DNA from: a virus
Lineage: Duplodnaviria > Heunggongvirae > Uroviricota > Caudoviricetes
Strand: one strand, 5' to 3'
DNA length: 64,000 nt
Virus record (IMG/VR): IMGVR_UViG_3300026549_000033
Span: 1 to 64,000 of that record
Every line of letters begins with the position of its first letter. The stretch's first letter is position 1. Shown here piece after piece: positions 2,470 to 13,900 of this stretch. A program made the position numbers and the translations under genes. A model generated the notes under the pieces. That model was not told where the DNA came from. It worked only from the letters and a program-made list of their open reading frames with translations, and searched no databases.

Positions 2470-2682
2470 ATGGTATTTAATTGTTTTAACTGTGGGGCTC
2501 CGCTTCCAATAAATTCTGTGAAGTGCAAGGAGTGCGGTTTTACCCCCGATATAGAATTTATGAGAAAATGTCCTAATTTAAAAGTAGCTACTTGTGTTCT
2601 TACGGGAAAGTTTTGTAATAACAAAGGAGCTTATCAAACTTGTCCTATAAAAAATAAAGCTGATTCTGAATGCGGGTATTAA
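2470..2682 (+). CDS. Small zinc-ribbon protein, 70 aa.
   Basis: Paired CxxC motifs (CFNCG ... CKECG ... C...C). Translationally coupled to both neighbours. Confidence 0.55.
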   Translation: MVFNCFNCGAPLPINSVKCKECGFTPDIEFMRKCPNLKVATCVLTGKFCNNKGAYQTCPIKNKADSECGY

Positions 2683-3740
2683 ATTCTAAATTTATGAAGA
2701 CTTTTAAAAATGAATTAAATCCTAAATTATATAATGGCGAAGAATTAAAGCCTGAAGTTTTAAAGAAGCTTAAAGAAATAGCTGAGGCTTTTATAGATTT
2801 TCTTGAAATTCCGAAAACCGCCGTAAAAGATATTGTTATAACAGGTTCCTGCGCTTCTTATAATTACACGAAGCATTCAGACATAGATTTACACGTAATT
2901 GTGGATCCTAATAAAGTTCATGAAGACTGCCCGATAGTAGGACCTTACCTCCTTTCTAAGAAATCTGAGTTTAATCAGAAGCATGATATTTATATTTATG
3001 GGGTTCCTGTAGAAGTTTATACAGAGTTAGAAGGACAGGGAACTATACATAATGGACTATACTCCTTAAACAATGGATGGATAGACTTTCCTAAGAAGAT
3101 ACCTCCTTTAAAAAATAGTGCAGCAGTAAAGGCTAAATACAATGAATATGTGGAAGCTGCCAAAGAAATTAAAGAGGGTGATTTAGCTGAAAAGCTTTTA
3201 GATAAAATTAAACGCATGAGAAAAGCAGGATTAGAAGAAGGCGGGGAGTTTTCTGTAGAGAATTTAGTATTCAAGAAATTAAGAGATAACGGTTTTATTG
3301 GTAAGCTTATGAAAATTAAAAAAGAAAAAGTGGATAAAGATCTTTCTTTAGAAGAAACTTATGAAGACTTAATAATGTCTATAGAAGAAATGATATGTAC
3401 TTCTACAGCAGTTATGGCTCCGTACCCTGTGAATGTAATAGGTAAACCTGTTACTTTCACAAAAATTAAAGGGGATAAAAAGGGGCACGGAGAAAAGAGA
3501 GCTCCTCATACAGAAACAGTAATTAAAGAAGAGTATGAAAAACAAAGTAAAGGAAACGAAAAATCTGCTATGTATAAATTTAGTTATAAGAAAAATGGAA
3601 AACTTCGTAAAGTAATGGAGAATATCGCAGAAGTTTGTGAAGCCATAATTTCTTTTGAAAATAAGATTAAGGCTCCTCAGTCAACTTTAGAAGAAAGTAA
3701 AAGTAACGGGATAGCTTACTTCTATAATAAAGTTAATTAA
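2670..3740 (+). CDS. Polymerase-beta-superfamily nucleotidyltransferase, 356 aa, with a Lys/Glu-rich C-terminal extension.
   Basis: VITGSCASYNYTKHSDIDLHVIV matches hG[GS]-x9-13-Dh[DE]h. A further acidic residue lies downstream (KHDIYIYG). Overlaps the upstream ORF by 13 nt. Confidence 0.6.
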   Translation: MRVLNSKFMKTFKNELNPKLYNGEELKPEVLKKLKEIAEAFIDFLEIPKTAVKDIVITGSCASYNYTKHSDIDLHVIVDPNKVHEDCPIVGPYLLSKKSEFNQKHDIYIYGVPVEVYTELEGQGTIHNGLYSLNNGWIDFPKKIPPLKNSAAVKAKYNEYVEAAKEIKEGDLAEKLLDKIKRMRKAGLEEGGEFSVENLVFKKLRDNGFIGKLMKIKKEKVDKDLSLEETYEDLIMSIEEMICTSTAVMAPYPVNVIGKPVTFTKIKGDKKGHGEKRAPHTETVIKEEYEKQSKGNEKSAMYKFSYKKNGKLRKVMENIAEVCEAIISFENKIKAPQSTLEESKSNGIAYFYNKVN

Positions 3741-3771: not shown

Positions 3772-4347
3772 TTAGCGATGAATTGTATAGAAATAATGGT
3801 CTTTATTTCCTAATCTTATCATTGTTATTGTTATGAAAGGAAATTCACCCATACTAAAAGCAGTGTCAAAATGTCTTAACCTTTCTTCACTTTCTCTTGT
3901 AACGTCTTCAAGTTCACCTACATATTCTGTGCAACAAGTATCACAAGTTCTTTTAATTCCGTCTTTCCTGTACCTGTAATAACCGCTTGTTTTATCAGCA
4001 GGTTCTATATATTCAAGACCATATACTTCCATACAAGTTCTTTTAGGACTCCAAGGTCCTTCTGGATAATTGTAGAGAGTTTCTTCAAAAACTATACTTT
4101 TTGAGTTGTACTTGATCTTAGAACCAAAGTTGTCTTGAAAGACTTTATAGTTAGCAATAGAACCTTCACGGGTTTGTCCGTCGTTACAGACATGAGTGTC
4201 AGCCCAAAAGTTTCTAATGTGCTCGTCACCGCTTGTAAGTGCTATTTTAAGGTCTACAGCAAAGCTTACAAGACATTCATTTTTGATTTCTTCAAAAGAT
4301 TTTTCGCCAACTTCATGGAAGTTGAACACAACTTGTTCAATTAACAT
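3772..4347 (-). CDS. Hypothetical protein, 191 aa. Isolated reverse-strand, moron-like gene.
   Basis: Only sizeable minus-strand ORF in the first 36 kb. Bounded by the bidirectional terminator and a 209-bp AT-rich intergenic region. Cys-rich segment CDTCCTEY. Confidence 0.6.
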   Translation of the reverse strand: MLIEQVVFNFHEVGEKSFEEIKNECLVSFAVDLKIALTSGDEHIRNFWADTHVCNDGQTREGSIANYKVFQDNFGSKIKYNSKSIVFEETLYNYPEGPWSPKRTCMEVYGLEYIEPADKTSGYYRYRKDGIKRTCDTCCTEYVGELEDVTRESEERLRHFDTAFSMGEFPFITITMIRLGNKDHYFYTIHR

Positions 4348-4556
4348 TTTTTACCTTCTTTCTTTTTCCGCCACTAATACTATGTTAGTGGAAATTCTAC
4401 ATTACTATAATATAATGCTTTCTTAATTTTGTCAAACTTTATTAAATTATTAGTATAGCAATGAATAATAAGAAATTTCAAGTCTATTATTAAATTATAC
4501 ATTGTAAATTACATTATAAAGAATAATACACCATAAGCATAAGGAGAAATATATCA

Positions 4557-5114
4557 ATGCACTACACCTTAGACCAAACTAAAGTCATTGACCTTCAGAC
4601 TACTTTCAGATTTGAAATCGGTATTGAAGCAGACGCGGCTAACCGAGCATTAGGTCTTGCAGAAGACATTACAGGTTACATACAGCAGAGTGATCTTCCG
4701 TCAGCTCCAGGTGAACCAATTACATGGCACCTTCCGGGCGGTATGAAAAACTATCAAGCAGGGAAAAGAACAGTTCAACCTATTTCTATGACATTTGTTG
4801 TTCCTACAACAGCAGGAAACGGCTCAGTTTATAGATTATTAGAAAAATGGGCTCACGCAACTTACGACTTAGATAAAGGTACTAATATAGGAAAAAGAAA
4901 TTATTGTACAGATGGTATTTATATTTTCTTGAAGGGCGAAGACAATAATTATAAGTATACCTTCAGATTGAAAAGAGCACAAGTTACTAATTGTAACTAT
5001 GGTACTGTTGCTTCTGAAGCTAATGACTTAATTAAGGTTCAATGTACATTCATATATGATAACTACGAAGTATATGAAGGATACAAAGGACCTGCTTTAA
5101 AAACAATGGGTTAA
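4557..5114 (+). CDS. Putative tail structural protein (tube or completion-like), 185 aa.
   Basis: First gene of a co-directional block ending in the tape measure and baseplate genes. RBS aaggag. The assignment rests on position only. Confidence 0.35.
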   Translation: MHYTLDQTKVIDLQTTFRFEIGIEADAANRALGLAEDITGYIQQSDLPSAPGEPITWHLPGGMKNYQAGKRTVQPISMTFVVPTTAGNGSVYRLLEKWAHATYDLDKGTNIGKRNYCTDGIYIFLKGEDNNYKYTFRLKRAQVTNCNYGTVASEANDLIKVQCTFIYDNYEVYEGYKGPALKTMG

Positions 5115-5144
5115 TTATTCAATTATATTTTGTGTGGAATGTTT

Positions 5145-5175
5145 AGGAGAGTTATTTTTGCTCTCCTTTTTATTA
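5145..5175 (+). terminator. Rho-independent terminator (aggagag-ttatttttg-ctctcct-ttttatta).
   Basis: 7-bp perfect stem plus a T-tract after the 185-aa gene. Confidence 0.65.
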
Positions 5176-5196
5176 TCTATAATTAAATTTTAGAGT

Positions 5197-6045
5197 ATGG
5201 CTATATTTCAAAAGAAAAATAAAACGCTACAACCGATAGATTGGCCTCCGATAGCAGACGGGGAAGCAGCAAGTCCCGTGGTGGCTAATGCTGCTAATAA
5301 TTACACTTTACAAGGTGGAATTACCTATTCTCCTGAAACTACAAAAGTTTTTGAGTTAGGTATTTCGAAGTCTACCCAAGCTGAGTCTCCTCAAATTAAT
5401 GACGGAATATGGCTTATGGATATCGCGCAGAGCCATCACTATACAGTTCAGATTAGTAATATGGAGGGGATGTCGAGTTTGAAAACTCCAAAAGGGTCTT
5501 TCTCAGAGTTCCTTCCTGTTAAAACAATGAATTTAAAATATACAAGTTACGAGAATATGAGTATTCCTGTGGCAATATTTGGAGACTTTCCACTTTTAAA
5601 TAAAAAGAGAGTTAGTACTATAGACTTATCTTGCTACGACTTTGATAATAATAAATTAGAGTATGAACTTCGTAGATGGGAGGCTCAGTGTTTCCCTAAA
5701 GGAAGATATGTAGCTTATATGGACGACATAGCCCGTGAATTTATATATCGTGGGTATAGCGTGGATGGAAGAAAAACTTTAGAATACAGGGTTTTTGTAA
5801 TTCCTTCGGGAAATGTCACAGTCTCAAGAGATTACAGTGCTAACGAAGCTAAAATGCTAAATTTCAGTTTAGTTGTAGTTGGTGACGGAAGAACCTGTGC
5901 TCACGGCGAAGGAAAGACCCCTGGAATTATAGTAGAAGACCACGGTGGAGCGGGCGACGGAAGATATCCTAAGGGTGGCTTTGCTACTTTGTACGTTTCA
6001 GGTTATGGAAAGTGGAATCCAAAGACAGAACGTTTCGAAGTTTAA
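5197..6045 (+). CDS. Putative major tail protein, 282 aa.
   Basis: Positional. Downstream of a terminator (possible read-through attenuator) and upstream of a chaperone-like gene and the tape measure gene. Confidence 0.35.
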   Translation: MAIFQKKNKTLQPIDWPPIADGEAASPVVANAANNYTLQGGITYSPETTKVFELGISKSTQAESPQINDGIWLMDIAQSHHYTVQISNMEGMSSLKTPKGSFSEFLPVKTMNLKYTSYENMSIPVAIFGDFPLLNKKRVSTIDLSCYDFDNNKLEYELRRWEAQCFPKGRYVAYMDDIAREFIYRGYSVDGRKTLEYRVFVIPSGNVTVSRDYSANEAKMLNFSLVVVGDGRTCAHGEGKTPGIIVEDHGGAGDGRYPKGGFATLYVSGYGKWNPKTERFEV

Positions 6046-6048
6046 ATT

Positions 6049-6077
6049 TGACAGAATTTTAAAATAAAGGTATAATA
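6049..6077 (+). promoter_or_regulatory. Sigma-70-like promoter TTGACA-N17-TATAAT, with an AAAT extension upstream of the -35.
   Basis: ttgaca at 6049-6054, a 17-nt spacer, tataat at 6072-6077. Confidence 0.6.
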
Positions 6078-6108
6078 AAAGTAAAATAGAAAGAGAGAGA
6101 GAGGATTT

Positions 6109-6861
6109 ATGGACGGACAACGTGTAGATTTATTGCAATTACCTTCAAAAGGTTATAGTTATCCAAAAGATATTGAAATATATGTAAGACCATTATCTAT
6201 TAAAGAACAAATAGATATGGAGAGATACGGTATTTCAGACGCTGAGTACTTCAACATGATTTTGAACGGAATAACAATTCATGGTGATTTTAATAAAAGA
6301 AACTTATTGCACTCAGACGTGCAATTTATGGACGTTGTTAGAAGACTATTTTCTTTTGATACAAAAGATACAATAAGGATTGAAGACTGTAAGTGCATTT
6401 ACCCTGACTGCGGTCATAAATTTAATTATGAATTTACTATGGATCAATTAGAGTTTACAGAATTCCACGAAGATATCTTTGGAAAGCACTTCATATTTGG
6501 GGAAGGTACGGATGATGAATTAGAAGTTGTAGTTTCTCCTATTACAGTTTCTGAGTATATTCAAATGAGTAAAGAATTCAGAAATAATGTAGATAAGAAG
6601 AGTGTTCTTTCTTCAATGTATACAGATTATATGTGTACTTGTATTAGAGAAGTCGTAGGTAGGACTTTTAAAAATGACAAAGATAGGAATTCTTTCCTTA
6701 AAGGTTATATTGAAAATCTTTGCATGGCAAAAGATAAAAAGTTACTCAAACAAATTGTAGATGAGACTATTATTAAAATTGAACCGTTTACTTTGATTTG
6801 CGAAGCTTGCGGAAGAGAAACGGAGGTAGTAGTTAGCCCTACGTCCAACTTTCAACAGTAG
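6109..6861 (+). CDS. Putative tail assembly chaperone (G-like), 250 aa, Cys-rich.
   Basis: Position immediately upstream of the tape measure gene. The +1 frame stays open for 91 codons past its stop. Confidence 0.4.
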   Translation: MDGQRVDLLQLPSKGYSYPKDIEIYVRPLSIKEQIDMERYGISDAEYFNMILNGITIHGDFNKRNLLHSDVQFMDVVRRLFSFDTKDTIRIEDCKCIYPDCGHKFNYEFTMDQLEFTEFHEDIFGKHFIFGEGTDDELEVVVSPITVSEYIQMSKEFRNNVDKKSVLSSMYTDYMCTCIREVVGRTFKNDKDRNSFLKGYIENLCMAKDKKLLKQIVDETIIKIEPFTLICEACGRETEVVVSPTSNFQQ

Positions 6862-7108
6862 TGGCAAACCCTATTCCCGTGAAGGATTTTACCCTGTATA
6901 TCATTTAATTGACTACGGAAAACCTTTTAATAGAAAAGATTTTTTGAAAAATCTTGGATATTATGTTGAAAAAGGTTGGGGTTCTTATAAAGAGCTAATA
7001 AGCCTTACTATGAAGGACTTCATTGAAATTGGTATTGGTATAGAATCTAAAATGCAAGAAGAAATGCTCGAAAAAAGTAAAAATAGCGGTGGTCCTATTA
7101 TAGGGTAG
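6833..7108 (+). other. Open +1 frame with no ATG in its first 59 codons. Candidate frameshift extension (T-like) of the chaperone gene.
   Basis: The +1 frame is open from 6833 to a TAG at 7106-7108, and the only ATG is at about 7010. It overlaps the last 9 codons of the 6109..6861 ORF, which contain a UUU_C motif at 6850-6853. Confidence 0.4.
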
Positions 7109-7158
7109 ACTAATTAAATTATAAAGTTAGTTATAGTTTAAAGGATAAAATTTTTAGG

Positions 7159-9450
7159 ATGTCAAAAAGTTCTAATGACGATATAAATGTAGCTTACCTT
7201 GAGAAACTTGCAGACGCGGTATCAGACGCTGCTATGTCTATGCAAAAAATAAGTGAGAGTTATGGTTCTAATGGTCAGTTAGAGCAGACTTTACGTAGTC
7301 TTGCAAAATCTGTAAATGACGGAACCATGACCACAAAGCAACTCCTTAGAGAAGCAGCTAATACTCAAAAGAACATGAGAAGTGTGGAGTACGGCTTAGA
7401 GAGCACCACAAAATATAATAAGACTGTAAATATGTTTATTAAGCTTATGGAGGAAAGACTTAAAAATTCTAAGCTTGATGAAGTACTTATTAAAAAGTTA
7501 ACTACAGCCTTTGAAAATTTAGATGTAACAGCTATCCTTGAATCTGAAAAAATAGGGCAAAGAGGTGGAAAAGGGGCTCCTCTTAAAAATGTCATGGATA
7601 ATGAAAAATTAGGTAAAGTTAATGAGGATTTAGCTAGAAGGATAGGAGTTCGATACGATAATGCTCAATATAAGTTAATAAACTTCTTTCAAAATGTAGG
7701 GCAAAATATCAAAAAAGGAGTAGTAAACTTCGGGAGAGACTTAATTGAAGGTCTCGAGAAGTCTAGATGGGTAGGTGGAGCTCTTAGAGATACTTTCCGT
7801 TTAATAGGTTTACTTGGAGCTAATTGGCTTCAACAGTTTGGAAAATTAGGAAAAATCTTAGGGGGAGCTTTCTATGTAGCTATGGAGTTAGCAGGACCTA
7901 CTTTAGTTAAACTTCTATTACAAGGGATGGGGAAACTCCTCTTAAAGATTCCTTCATTAATAGGTAGATTTGGTTGGGGTAATGCGGCAGGTGTAGCTAT
8001 TGGAGCTGCCGGAGCTATGTGGGCTTTTGATGAAGCAAAAGATTCTGAAAGAAGAGGACGTAAAGGAAACGCAGCCGCTTTTAGGACAGGCGGAGTTGCA
8101 ATGGGGGCAGGGGCTGCTGCTTTAGGAGTTACAGGATTAGCTACTTTAGGTGCAAGTGCAGCAGGAGCTATGGGAGCTACAGGACTTGCAGGGGTGCTAT
8201 CGGGTATTGCTGCTGCTTTAGGACCTATTGGATGGACTTTATTAGCAATAGGTGGAGCTGTTGCGGGTATTGCAGTCTTATGGAAAAACCACAGCGAAAC
8301 TATTAAAAAGTGGGCAGGTAAATTTATGACTTTTGTAAATAAAGTCATAGACTTTATGGCAATGTTTAACCCTATTTTTAAAGCAATTCAATGGATTAGA
8401 GATAATTGGCCTTTTGGAGAAAAAGGAACTGGGGGCTCAATTGGGGGAAATAACCCTAATAAAGGTACGGGTATTGCTGACTCTATTATAGATAACAAAA
8501 AAGGAAATTATGTTACCTATGGGAAAATGAAAGTTTCCAAAAGAGACGGTTCTATACTCAATTTAAGTGAGCTCTCTCAAGATGAAGCTTCGGCGGCTTT
8601 ACAAGCTTATGAAAAAGCGGATCCAACTTCTTTTAACAGAGTTTATGAATGGGTAGCAGGCGACAAAGCTAGCTTACAGTCACACTCTACGGACGCTGTA
8701 AAAAAAGTTAATGGTAAAGTAGTTGCAGCACTTAGTAAAAAAGGGACGTCTCAAGAAGTTGAGGATCTACGGAACATGCTTATGAGTATGGGGATGTCTA
8801 AACAGAAAGCTTCCGAGTTTGTTCAAACTTCAGGTAAACTCACAGGAAGTAACACTCAACACTCTGTGGGAGGATGGAAGTCACATAATAATCAGTATGG
8901 TCTTGGTATAGACTTAGCAGGAGGACAATCGTGGACAGGTCAAGATTATCTTAATAATTACGAAGCGATTAAACAATTCTATCGTGCTAGGGGGTTTGAA
9001 GTGGCCTTAGAAAGACCTGGACAAGGTAAAAGTACTGGGTGGCACTATGACATTAAACCTGCTTCAAATTTCAGACCTACAGGAGCTATGGAAAACTTTA
9101 GTGAGTATGAGTCTCAACAGAAAGCTGTAGCTGAGCAACGTTCAATAGCACTTAAGAGCGTAGCTGAATTTGCAGACGCAGCCGAAGTAAAACGCATAAA
9201 AGAGCAAAGAGCTATGCCTATGACGGAAAGAGGTTATTCTGTTAACCTTGATGAAATGAATTTAACGGACGCAGATTACCGAGCAATCTTGAAGAAACAT
9301 GGTATTTATGAAGATAAGAGTACAAATACTTGGATGAGAGAAACAGACAAGGGTATAGAATCTTTATGGTATGATAACGCGGGTAATATGCAATGGCGCT
9401 TGATTTTAAGTACAATGCAGGGGGCTTCACAAGGGTCTACAGGAAGGTAA
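7159..9450 (+). CDS. Tail tape measure protein with a C-terminal peptidase M15 (VanY-like) domain, 763 aa.
   Basis: Gly/Ala-rich hydrophobic repeat core (GAAGAMWAF ... GATGLAGVLSGIAAALGPIGW). C-terminal SHNNQYGLGIDLAG ... GWHYD resembles the SxHxxGxAxD ... WH zinc-peptidase signature. Confidence 0.7.
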   Translation: MSKSSNDDINVAYLEKLADAVSDAAMSMQKISESYGSNGQLEQTLRSLAKSVNDGTMTTKQLLREAANTQKNMRSVEYGLESTTKYNKTVNMFIKLMEERLKNSKLDEVLIKKLTTAFENLDVTAILESEKIGQRGGKGAPLKNVMDNEKLGKVNEDLARRIGVRYDNAQYKLINFFQNVGQNIKKGVVNFGRDLIEGLEKSRWVGGALRDTFRLIGLLGANWLQQFGKLGKILGGAFYVAMELAGPTLVKLLLQGMGKLLLKIPSLIGRFGWGNAAGVAIGAAGAMWAFDEAKDSERRGRKGNAAAFRTGGVAMGAGAAALGVTGLATLGASAAGAMGATGLAGVLSGIAAALGPIGWTLLAIGGAVAGIAVLWKNHSETIKKWAGKFMTFVNKVIDFMAMFNPIFKAIQWIRDNWPFGEKGTGGSIGGNNPNKGTGIADSIIDNKKGNYVTYGKMKVSKRDGSILNLSELSQDEASAALQAYEKADPTSFNRVYEWVAGDKASLQSHSTDAVKKVNGKVVAALSKKGTSQEVEDLRNMLMSMGMSKQKASEFVQTSGKLTGSNTQHSVGGWKSHNNQYGLGIDLAGGQSWTGQDYLNNYEAIKQFYRARGFEVALERPGQGKSTGWHYDIKPASNFRPTGAMENFSEYESQQKAVAEQRSIALKSVAEFADAAEVKRIKEQRAMPMTERGYSVNLDEMNLTDADYRAILKKHGIYEDKSTNTWMRETDKGIESLWYDNAGNMQWRLILSTMQGASQGSTGR

Positions 9451-13168: not shown

Positions 13169-13900
13169 ATGTTAATTAAACCTTTTACACCATTACTAAA
13201 AGAACAAACAGACCCGACTACAATGTCATATATAGGGAATGTTGTGGATAACAATGATCCTAAGAAATTAGGAAGAGTTAAAGTTCAAATTTCTCCATAT
13301 GCAGACTTGAGTGTGGAGGCAATTCCTTGGGCTTCCCCCTTTTTAGCTTCTCATGGAAATAGTCAAGATTATGGAGGTATAAATATCCCTGAAATTGGAA
13401 GTCAGGTTCGTGTGACATTTCCAAGTAAGGATTTTACAGCTCCTTATTATAGTGGTGCTGAATTAAATGAAACCACAAGGACTACCTTCTTTGACGACGA
13501 TTATCCTCATACTTATGGTTACAAAGACTCTGTAGGTAATTTTGTTAAAATAAATAAAGAAAGAGGTACTGCACAAATTCAGCATTCCTCAACTACAAAT
13601 ATGCAAGTTTCCCCTGACGGTTCTATAAAAGTGGGTCTTGCAGGTGGAGCTTACTTTATATTCGATAATGAAAATAATTTTGAGTTAAATATTGGAACTC
13701 TTGACATAAGTGGAAGTGCTGACGGTTCTTTAAGTGTAGACGCGAATAACGAAATTAATATTTCTACAGGGCAAGTAAACATTTCAGGTAACGTGGCTAT
13801 AGACGGAGACCTGAACATAAAGAATGGGGTTAGCGGGAGTTTTATGGCAATGGGAAATCTTGTTATGGTCGAAAACGGGATTATTGTAGCGATATTATAA
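13169..13900 (+). CDS. Baseplate central spike protein (P2 gpV / T4 gp5 OB-domain family) with a C-terminal beta-helix-like repeat.
   Basis: LGRVKVQISPY ... IPWASPF ... PEIGSQVRVTFP matches the Phage_base_V pattern. C-terminal NISTGQVNISGNVAIDGDLNIKNG repeats. Confidence 0.65.
   Translation: MLIKPFTPLLKEQTDPTTMSYIGNVVDNNDPKKLGRVKVQISPYADLSVEAIPWASPFLASHGNSQDYGGINIPEIGSQVRVTFPSKDFTAPYYSGAELNETTRTTFFDDDYPHTYGYKDSVGNFVKINKERGTAQIQHSSTTNMQVSPDGSIKVGLAGGAYFIFDNENNFELNIGTLDISGSADGSLSVDANNEINISTGQVNISGNVAIDGDLNIKNGVSGSFMAMGNLVMVENGIIVAIL

Follow-up and report, generated by a model that had tools for sequence, protein, structure and literature searches.

What is encoded in the 297 nt that separate the stop codon of a 250-codon open reading frame (ORF) from the ATG of the tape measure gene (7159) in a Caudoviricetes phage, and how would ribosomes reach it? 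The question is raised by a stretch of 64,000 nt, hereafter the window (IMG/VR record IMGVR_UViG_3300026549_000033, positions 1 to 64,000), in which the ORF at 6109–6861 lies upstream of this gap. A preliminary description of the locus read the gap as coding and proposed that a programmed +1 frameshift joins it to the ORF, as in the G/GT-type pairs of tail assembly chaperones. Our evidence is computational throughout, drawn from sequence comparison and predicted structures, and it indicates that a +1 shift at a UUU_C sequence very probably yields a fusion protein.

A conserved reading frame that lacks a separate start codon

The 3' end of the ORF reads TCC AAC TTT CAA CAG TAG, with AAC beginning at 6847, TTT at 6850 and the stop at 6859–6861. 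In the +1 frame, two consecutive TAG codons (6827–6832) close the upstream sequence, after which the frame is open from 6833 for 91 sense codons, up to TAG at 7106–7108, and overlaps the upstream ORF by 29 nt. The continued 0 frame and the third frame are both filled with stops across the 297-nt gap. By an arithmetic estimate, the chance of a random 91-codon open stretch at the 34% G+C of the window is ~1e-3. Codon 38 of the +1 frame, TTG at 6944, is its first canonical start; it is not preceded by a Shine-Dalgarno (SD) sequence, and the first ATG is codon 60. The 250-aa ORF, the 91-codon frame at 6833–7108, the lack of an early ATG and the AAC-UUU-CAA sequence, as previously described, were thereby confirmed in every coordinate. 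Reassignment of TAG to Gln was also considered and was rejected, because relatives have TAA in its place and more TAA and TGA stops follow when the 0 frame is read on.

To place the locus among its relatives, homologous loci were collected from IMG/VR, JGI, ENA and Logan assemblies, mostly rumen-type metagenomes, giving ~30 independent loci that represent ~14 distinct lineages with identities of 57–99%. A megablast search of window positions 6000–7300 against 50,697 phage records and a tblastn search of the 91-aa extension against phage records returned no match, no cultured phage being a near relative in DNA sequence. A metagenome scan for further loci gave 6 only; for more distant IMG/VR loci the alignment query was too divergent, and single-sequence queries gave none. 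The one match of a genome scan, in a Clostridia metagenome-assembled genome, was discarded as a spurious hit to a CxxC zinc-ribbon protein.

In every lineage, a 0-frame stop (TAG or TAA) occupies the homologous position, and the +1 frame opens 26–32 nt 5' of it, continues for 78–91 codons and ends a little 5' of the tape measure gene. The +1 translation follows the consensus FN[SN][SN]...Y[SD]P[DE]GF[YF]PVY...GKPF[DN]RK...YY[VI]EKGWGSY.ELI.L[ST]M[KR]D..EI.IGIES, and length differences among relatives are whole codons, all indels being multiples of 3. Across 14 lineages, the mean pN/pS (ratio of nonsynonymous to synonymous polymorphism) of the +1 frame is 0.43 over the 27 codons that follow the 0-frame stop and precede the first potential start in the window, and 0.41 over the remaining codons, with third positions the most variable, whereas the other two frames of the same nucleotides contain 72 and 107 stops and give pN/pS-type ratios of 1.19 and 1.50. 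The proposal that the gap is coding was borne out in this way in all ~14 lineages, and the stop-rich +1 frame that might have been found in related phages was seen in none of them.

The upstream protein belongs to a family of 145 database homologues (92–57% identity), all ~250 aa long. They span just the first 75% of a hypothetical 332-aa fusion used as query, and since they end at ~250 aa, no in-frame fusion exists among them. A database search with the extension alone found 24 short fragments of 47–97 aa with differing artificial starts, and neither a standalone nor a fused gene. These observations bear on the simplest alternative, in which a shifted gene is mimicked by an indel from sequencing or assembly, by a pseudogene or by a frame left open by chance. 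One window alone would be compatible with a 1-nt error; however, the same offset and stop recur in the ~30 independent and diverged assemblies and in nine cultured, finished phage genomes (see below), 145 of 145 homologues end at ~250 aa, with none fused in frame, and the +1 frame is under purifying selection. Error, decay and chance are excluded by this conservation, and we give them practically no weight.

We also considered whether the +1 ORF is a separate small gene with independent, perhaps non-canonical or coupled, initiation. Such a gene might use the strong, invariant SD-like GGAGGU upstream of the overlap; moreover, a +1-frame ATG is present in some relatives and distant phages, and a small coding sequence (CDS) is sometimes called there by annotators or gene callers. 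However, ATG, GTG and TTG positions in the +1 frame are scattered among lineages and none is conserved. In lineage L004 the first of them comes at codon 53 of 82, and the sequence before it is nevertheless conserved as protein (pN/pS 0.43); the window's own first candidate is the TTG without an SD described above. Neither is GGAGGU a plausible ribosome binding site for the extension, because +1-frame stops follow it at 0–9 nt, and the codons after these (TTA, GTC, TTT, CAC, GAC and others) are not starts. Thus no conserved independent start was found in relatives, and we regard independent initiation as improbable.

In the sub-clade L025–L027, one or two extra ORFs (276–311 aa, about 4120–6000) lie between the extension and the tape measure gene. 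Despite these inserted genes, the extension stays directly behind the upstream gene. Taken together, the open frame, its pN/pS, the scattered starts and this persistent attachment indicate that the +1 frame belongs to the upstream gene, lacks a start of its own and is translated from within the overlap or immediately 3' of it. The locus thus shows an overlapping second ORF without its own start or ribosome binding site but with conservation at the protein level, as in G/GT pairs.

The UUU_C site and neighbouring signals

About 8 codons of the overlap are common to all lineages. The tRNA-Phe slip from UUU to UUC proposed earlier falls on the sole conserved +1 re-pairing site in this overlap, and the site has been kept against codon bias. 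C_UUU_CAR_CAR is invariant at the nucleotide level in the 14 rumen lineages, Phe being encoded by TTT in 14/14, and the preceding Asn codon is AAC in 13/14 although AAC makes up 23% of the Asn codons in this genome. At the protein level, F248, Q249 and Q250 are invariant across 26 proteins. This pattern indicates that UUU_C is under nucleotide-level selection, and the expectation that the overlap and its UUU_C would be conserved in related phages held in all 14 rumen lineages and, for UUU_C, in the distant lineages described below. The site has the UUU (6850–6852) followed by C (6853) of the UUU_CGN shift sites of PA-X, amalgaviruses and HF1 haloviruses, with CAA or CAG in place of CGN, a slowly decoded Arg codon, as the A-site codon in the window's clade. 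No −1 slippery heptamer (XXXYYYZ) is present in the overlap; the offset is +1, and the −1 frame is closed.

Other routes to the same frame were compared with a slip at UUU_C. Recoding could also take the form of a −2 shift, of a short hop by the ribosome or of a Ty3-like +1 shift made at the stop codon with no re-pairing: −2 and +1 shifts lead into one and the same frame, the signal could include the stop close by and the invariant Gln-Gln before it, and in the haloarchaeal phage HF2 a UUU is likewise followed by two codons before the stop. The overlap, however, contains no codon that would allow −2 re-pairing, and no matching pair of take-off and landing codons for a hop was seen. As for the stop, the codon beside it varies (GAG in L036 and L008, CAG or CAA elsewhere), and in L036 and L008 point substitutions have moved the 0-frame stop one codon further 3' while UUU_C and the +1 frame are intact. 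A movable stop beside a fixed UUU_C argues against a mechanism centred on the stop codon, as do the distant lineages, in which the 0-frame stop lies 15–19 codons past UUU_CGU and a conserved +1 Val directly follows UUC. These routes together appear as improbable as independent initiation.

Transcriptional slippage, in which RNA polymerase stutters and produces a +1 mRNA, would likewise be expected to give a +1-frame fusion protein, and no result here points to it. Known slippage sites comprise about 6–9 identical bases or more. Homopolymers in the overlap do not exceed 3 nt (T3, A2) in any lineage, and slippage is therefore very unlikely, more so than either of the preceding alternatives.

A further conserved element is the GGAGGT sequence upstream of the UUU_C site (Table 1). 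It is built of rare codons (ACG, 6% of Thr; GTG, 11% of Val; GAG, 29% of Glu), and GAGG-type motifs are found 14–28 nt 5' of UUU in 6/9 distant phages. RNAalifold pairs GGAGGU with ACUUUC, the shift site itself; as both blocks are invariant, covariation between them could not be assessed. A single-sequence fold around the site gave z = −2.1 and is not conserved among lineages. As a prfB/dnaX-like stimulator or as an SD for initiation GGAGGU was rejected, its spacing being wrong and a start codon absent; possibly it is a stimulator of the shift of a new, long-range kind.

The same layout in distantly related cultured myoviruses

A tblastn search detected weak homologues of the upstream protein (24–30% identity) in four cultured phages, and two wider searches extended these to 27 phage records. 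Nine lineages were examined: Escherichia coli phage vB_EcoM_IME392 (with its relative EP_H11), Rhizobium phage RHph_TM30 (Kleczkowskaviridae), Pseudomonas putida phage vB_PpuM-Aura (of the vB_PpuM group), Vibrio phages GR7B, GR11A, 150E35-1 and Va2, Acinetobacter phage Ab1-TPeters and Thermus phage phiLo. Profile comparison with hhalign linked the rumen clade to these lineages over 216 columns (probability 99.15%, E 4e-19).

In 9/9 lineages the gp26-like gene (see the next section) lies between tube and tape-measure-like genes and is followed by a +1 frame open for 52–94 codons. In 8/9 this ORF ends 0–14 nt before the next start or overlaps the next gene; the exception is phiLo, where 128 nt separate the two. 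A closed −1 frame (4–16 codons) is seen in 8/9, whereas that of phiLo extends for 52 codons. Just inside the +1-open region, 8/9 lineages carry UUU_CGU after CCC or CCG (Pro-Phe-Arg), and the remaining phage, Va2, has GUG_UUU_CCC, so that a UUU_C is present in all nine. Phe is encoded by TTT in 9/9 although TTT accounts for 9–59% of Phe codons in those loci (naive product 8e-6), and CGT is used in 8/8 of the UUU_CGU lineages (naive product 6e-5). The conservation of CGU can be explained by +1 reading from this point, as C would complete UUC and GU would start the codon of a conserved Val (PF|V[ED]...). Downstream of the site, the overlap is conserved in both frames, as ...[RST]FG... in the 0 frame and ...LA[KR]... 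in the +1 frame. Judged from these sequences, such dual-frame conservation is what two real products would give.

These arrangements are not apparent from existing annotation. In GenBank, the gp26-like gene is labelled 'DNA methylase' in phiLo, 'peptidase domain-containing protein' in TM30 and hypothetical in others. In the records examined (MH673673, phiLo_126; NC_070966, gp293/gp294; OX241562, P0022/P0023; MT366761, GR11A_00113/114; MW073017; PP763253; MH719082; PP496437), the +1 ORF is either missing or given as a separate small CDS, and a frameshift is annotated in none.

Identity of the 250-aa protein

The 250-aa protein matches the Pfam family PF12322, 'T4 bacteriophage base plate protein' (the gp26 family), with 23.7 bits against a cut-off of 24.5 (E 4.4e-5). 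This alignment, just under the cut-off, covers residues 23–248 of the protein and 15–217 of the 219 profile positions, and most of the 145 database homologues carry PF12322 in precomputed matches. An AlphaFold model built from 26 homologues was confident, with a pLDDT (predicted local distance difference test) of 85 and a pTM (predicted template modelling score) of 0.80. Searched against BFVD, a collection of predicted viral structures, it gave 48 full-length matches at E<=1e-3 with TM scores of 0.4–0.69. Among these are proteins named 'Baseplate hub assembly protein, bacteriophage T4-like' and 'Baseplate hub subunit', so the fold is shared with annotated gp26 and baseplate-hub-assembly proteins; 'Gp26 base plate hub subunit [Aeromonas phage 25]' was a weaker match (E 2.2e-3). 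The best matches among solved structures were tail assembly chaperones (YqbN, HK97), with partial fold similarity. Direct comparison with the T4 gp26 sequence by hhalign was not significant (probability 3%), the CxxCG segment alone being aligned, and no sequence match of the 250-aa protein to the gpG, gpT or gpE families was found in Pfam or PHROGs.

On the basis of the PF12322 match, the domains of its homologues and the fold matches, the modelled protein is thus a member of the gp26 family, and one of its domains seems to resemble known tail assembly chaperones. In the literature, T4 gp26 appears as a 'hub assembly chaperone' (PMC3004832). In BFVD, the gp26-like fold also occurs in Ralstonia phage phiRSL1, Bacillus phages SP-15 and BCD7, Campylobacter phage CP220, Pseudomonas phage PaBG, Tenacibaculum phages pT24 and PTm1 and Acidovorax phage ACP17. 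Next to the gp26-like gene of lineage L026, immediately 5' of it, is an IS605 OrfB/TnpB (Cas12f-like) gene (1826–2950).

Proposed model for expression and function

We propose that ORF 6109–6861 encodes a tail (tape measure) assembly chaperone of the gp26 family in a myovirus with a T4-baseplate-type tail. In this model, most ribosomes would stop at the TAG at 6859 and release the 250-aa protein, while a minority would slip +1 with the P-site tRNA-Phe on UUU (6850–6852), re-pairing on UUC (6851–6853). AAC would then be decoded, and the +1 frame would be read for 84 more codons to the TAG at 7106. The predicted fusion is 332 aa long and consists of residues 1–248 followed by NSSGKPY...PIIG, the 84 codons past Phe 248; a structural model of the extension is mostly helical, with moderate confidence (pLDDT 67). 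In E. coli, UUU-pyrimidine sites have a known tendency to shift +1. If the two products work like lambda gpG/gpGT and P2 gpE/gpE+E', the part common to both would coat the tape measure protein, and the rarer extension would tether the chaperone-coated tape measure to the tube or hub, with the tube polymerising around the tape measure protein. Both the short and the fused protein would be expected to be absent from the finished virion. Here we infer the exact mechanism of the slip, its low efficiency and the chaperone function of both products.

Several observations weigh against this model. The 0-frame A-site codons of the window's clade are not rare (CAA and CAG account for 63% and 37% of Gln codons), so there is no obvious pause that would favour the slip, and its efficiency may be low or depend on other factors. 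RNAalifold across the 14 lineages found no conserved downstream structure, the weak 6-bp pairing detected joining two invariant blocks with no covariation, and an Rfam search of 6600–7300 gave no credible match. At 22 nt, GGAGGU is too distant for Shine-Dalgarno stimulation of the prfB/dnaX type. In Va2, GR7B, 150E35-1 and TM30, an ATG lies in the +1 frame inside the overlap, and independent initiation is possible in these phages. Finally, homology between the extensions of the rumen clade and those of the distant isolates was not supported by hhalign (probability 2%).

Since it draws on position, two-product logic and partial fold similarity, the functional part of the model is put forward with less assurance than the frameshift: on analogy, the short and fused proteins probably act as a tape-measure/tail assembly chaperone pair, the functional counterpart of lambda gpG/gpGT. 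The initial assignment to a G/GT-type pair accordingly stands as far as position, overlap and protein conservation are concerned, whereas sequence homology to gpG or gpT is undetectable. A wider evolutionary reading, whose chances we judge to be about even, would make the UUU_C +1 shift an ancient feature of the gp26-like gene when it lies upstream of the tape measure gene, and gp26 the G/GT chaperone of T4-baseplate-type tails. T4 would then be derived, its gene 26 relocated and the extension lost, with GGAGGU as a possible long-range stimulator.

Organization of the tail module

The features of the locus are collected in Table 1. The tube gene forms the upstream boundary of a module of tube gene, intervening ORF, chaperone gene and tape measure gene, an order found in all relatives, so that the gp26-like gene occupies the position between tube and tape measure genes that is typical of a G/GT pair. 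With the tube and tape measure genes, the gp5-like hub gene among the downstream genes identifies the locus as a myovirus tail/baseplate module. Ribosome binding sites of genes in the window are of the AGGAG type.

Table 1 Features of the tail module and of the proposed frameshift locus in the window.
Feature	Position	Strand	Description
Tail tube gene	4557–5114	+	185 aa; PHROG 45 'tail tube', E 8.7e-11
ORF between tube and chaperone genes	5197–6045		
Sigma-70 consensus promoter-like site	6048–6076	+	perfect, TTGACA-17-TATAAT; 12/12 positions
0-frame ORF, T4 gp26-like	6109–6861	+	250 aa; C-terminal CxxC zinc ribbon; stop TAG 6859–6861
SD-like GGAGGT	6822–6827	+	invariant, 14/14 lineages; 22 nt 5' of the shift codon
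Proposed +1 shift site AAC_UUU_C	6847–6853	+	only conserved +1 re-pairing site in the 26–32-nt overlap
+1-frame extension	6851–7108	+	85 sense codons (FNSSGKPYSREGFYPVY...GWGSYKELISLTMKDFIEI...), then TAG 7106–7108; with residues 1–247, a predicted product of 332 aa
ATTAAATTATA box, candidate phage promoter	7113–7123	+	5 nt past the +1 stop, 36 nt before the tape measure ATG
Tape measure gene	7159–9450	+	763 aa; PHROG 28 'tail length tape measure protein', E 1.8e-11
gp5-like baseplate hub gene	13169–13900		downstream of the tape measure gene

Two kinds of promoter-like element flank the gp26-like gene. The sigma-70 consensus sits 33 nt 5' of the chaperone ATG, a sequence that suggests transcription of the gp26-like gene by host RNA polymerase, separate from the tape measure gene. 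The ATTAAATTATA box occurs at the same place in 11/14 lineages (besides the window, in L004, L030, L024, L023, L032, L036, L007, L035, L018 and L015), a few nt 3' of the +1 stop and 25–45 nt 5' of the tape measure ATG. A second exact copy precedes the tube gene (4489–4499), and 24 near-matches were observed in the window against 10.9 expected. The box is a candidate phage-specific, perhaps late, promoter, and its sequence is reminiscent of the T4 late promoter TATAAATA. No terminator was found on the + strand between the two ORFs, and no tRNA genes were found in the window.

Other genes of the module vary among lineages. The tape measure proteins of L020–L023 and L028–L030 differ by lineage, with a Peptidase_M23 domain in one group and a Phage_lysozyme domain in another, and no wall-degrading domain of either type was detected in the window's tape measure protein. 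In L020 (4012–6507) the tape measure gene is called as two ORFs of 92 and 708 aa, while the near-identical L021 and L023 have a single ORF of 831 aa; the split could be genuine or could stem from misassembly. Just 5' of the tube gene, the tail module of the window contains a nucleotidyltransferase-domain ORF (2670–3740; PF01909, E 6.5e-7; PHROG 36119, E 1e-47) and a 191-aa ORF on the opposite (−) strand (3772–4347); relatives carry the sheath gene in this place.

Significance and comparison with known systems

In the full-text literature we found no prior description of a frameshift for gp26-like or 'baseplate hub assembly' genes. What is already known is the logic of frameshifted chaperones upstream of a tape measure gene; here, however, the shift is +1, the UUU_CAR variant of the site is new, the carrier family was previously unlinked to recoding, and the spread among bacterial myoviruses is wide and unannotated. 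The +1 layout is found in phages from rumen metagenomes and in cultured phages with hosts in six bacterial genera, namely those of E. coli, Vibrio, Pseudomonas, Rhizobium, Acinetobacter and Thermus. If the proposal is correct, the enigmatic gp26 family would gain a function as a tape-measure/tail assembly chaperone, and bacterial UUU_C would join the short list of natural +1 signals, most lineages having a motif identical to that of PA-X. UUU_C would then act on bacterial ribosomes although neither a rare codon nor an RNA structure is obvious at the site, and bacterial myoviruses would be linked to the +1 site predicted in haloarchaeal myoviruses. A simple rule (a gp26-like ORF, UUU_C, and a +1 ORF reaching to the tape measure gene) would correct many annotations of large myoviruses, and E. 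coli phage IME392 and the P. putida vB_PpuM phages would provide cultured systems for direct testing.

Lambda gpG and gpGT were reportedly characterized as frameshifted tail assembly chaperones by Levin in 1993 and by Xu, Hendrix and Duda in 2004. Frameshifted tail chaperones upstream of the tape measure gene are classical and almost always use a −1 shift, with T4 cited as an exception (PMC5009743). Like lambda gpG/gpGT and P2 gpE/gpE+E', the present locus has two overlapping ORFs between the tube (major tail) gene and the tape measure gene. In contrast to these systems, the proposed shift is +1 at UUU_C rather than −1 at an XXXYYYZ heptamer, and the carrier is a 250-aa protein with a zinc ribbon, from the T4 gp26 family (PF12322).

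T4 gp26 shares the fold family, as seen from the near-full-length PF12322 match and the BFVD matches. In T4, however, gene 26 lies directly before gene 25 (1-nt overlap) and not beside tape measure gene 29, and it lacks a +1 extension but contains an internal start in the same frame, which gives gp26'. The gene directly 5' of gene 29 in T4 is gene 28, which starts 56 nt inside gene 27 (6349–6404 of the T4 locus).

Programmed +1 frameshifts were reportedly described in Listeria phage PSA by Zimmer in 2003. In the Listeria phages PSA, A118 and A500, they affect cps and tsh (PMC5009743). These cases resemble the present one in that a programmed +1 shift in a phage structural module gives a C-terminally extended second product. 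They differ in the site, CCC_UGA or ACA_CCC, at which tRNA-Pro acts with the help of a stop codon or pseudoknot, and in concerning capsid and tail-shaft genes whose two products are both in the virion, none of which applies here. The Listeria precedent invoked in the preliminary description therefore holds for +1 shifts in structural genes, while the site, CCC_UGA, and the genes are different.

The influenza A PA-X site, UCC_UUU_CGU, is an experimentally established +1 site (PMC3498833). There too a P-site tRNA-Phe moves from UUU to UUC, and 8/9 distant lineages share the UUU_CGU hexamer. PA-X differs in being made on eukaryotic ribosomes, for which CGU is rare and slowly decoded, whereas CGU is a common Arg codon in the distant phages (22–57% in most) and the window's clade uses CAA/CAG instead.

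The closest precedent is the predicted TTT-CGC +1 shift of the HF1 group of haloarchaeal myoviruses, where the conserved site lies near the stop of the first chaperone CDS (PMC7230728); for HSTV-2 a +1 shift is considered 'very likely' (PMC5009743). The HF1-group viruses are archaeal and have CGC in the A site rather than CAA/CAG, and hhalign detected no homology between the 156-aa first chaperone of HF2 and the gp26-like protein (probability 0.35%). In both cases the prediction comes from sequence conservation, and the two systems share the same position (tube, chaperone, +1 ORF, tape measure), the same slip codon and the same direction, with AAG_UUU_CGC_AGA_UAG in HF2 paralleling AAC_UUU_CAA_CAG_UAG in the window: UUU, two codons and a stop.

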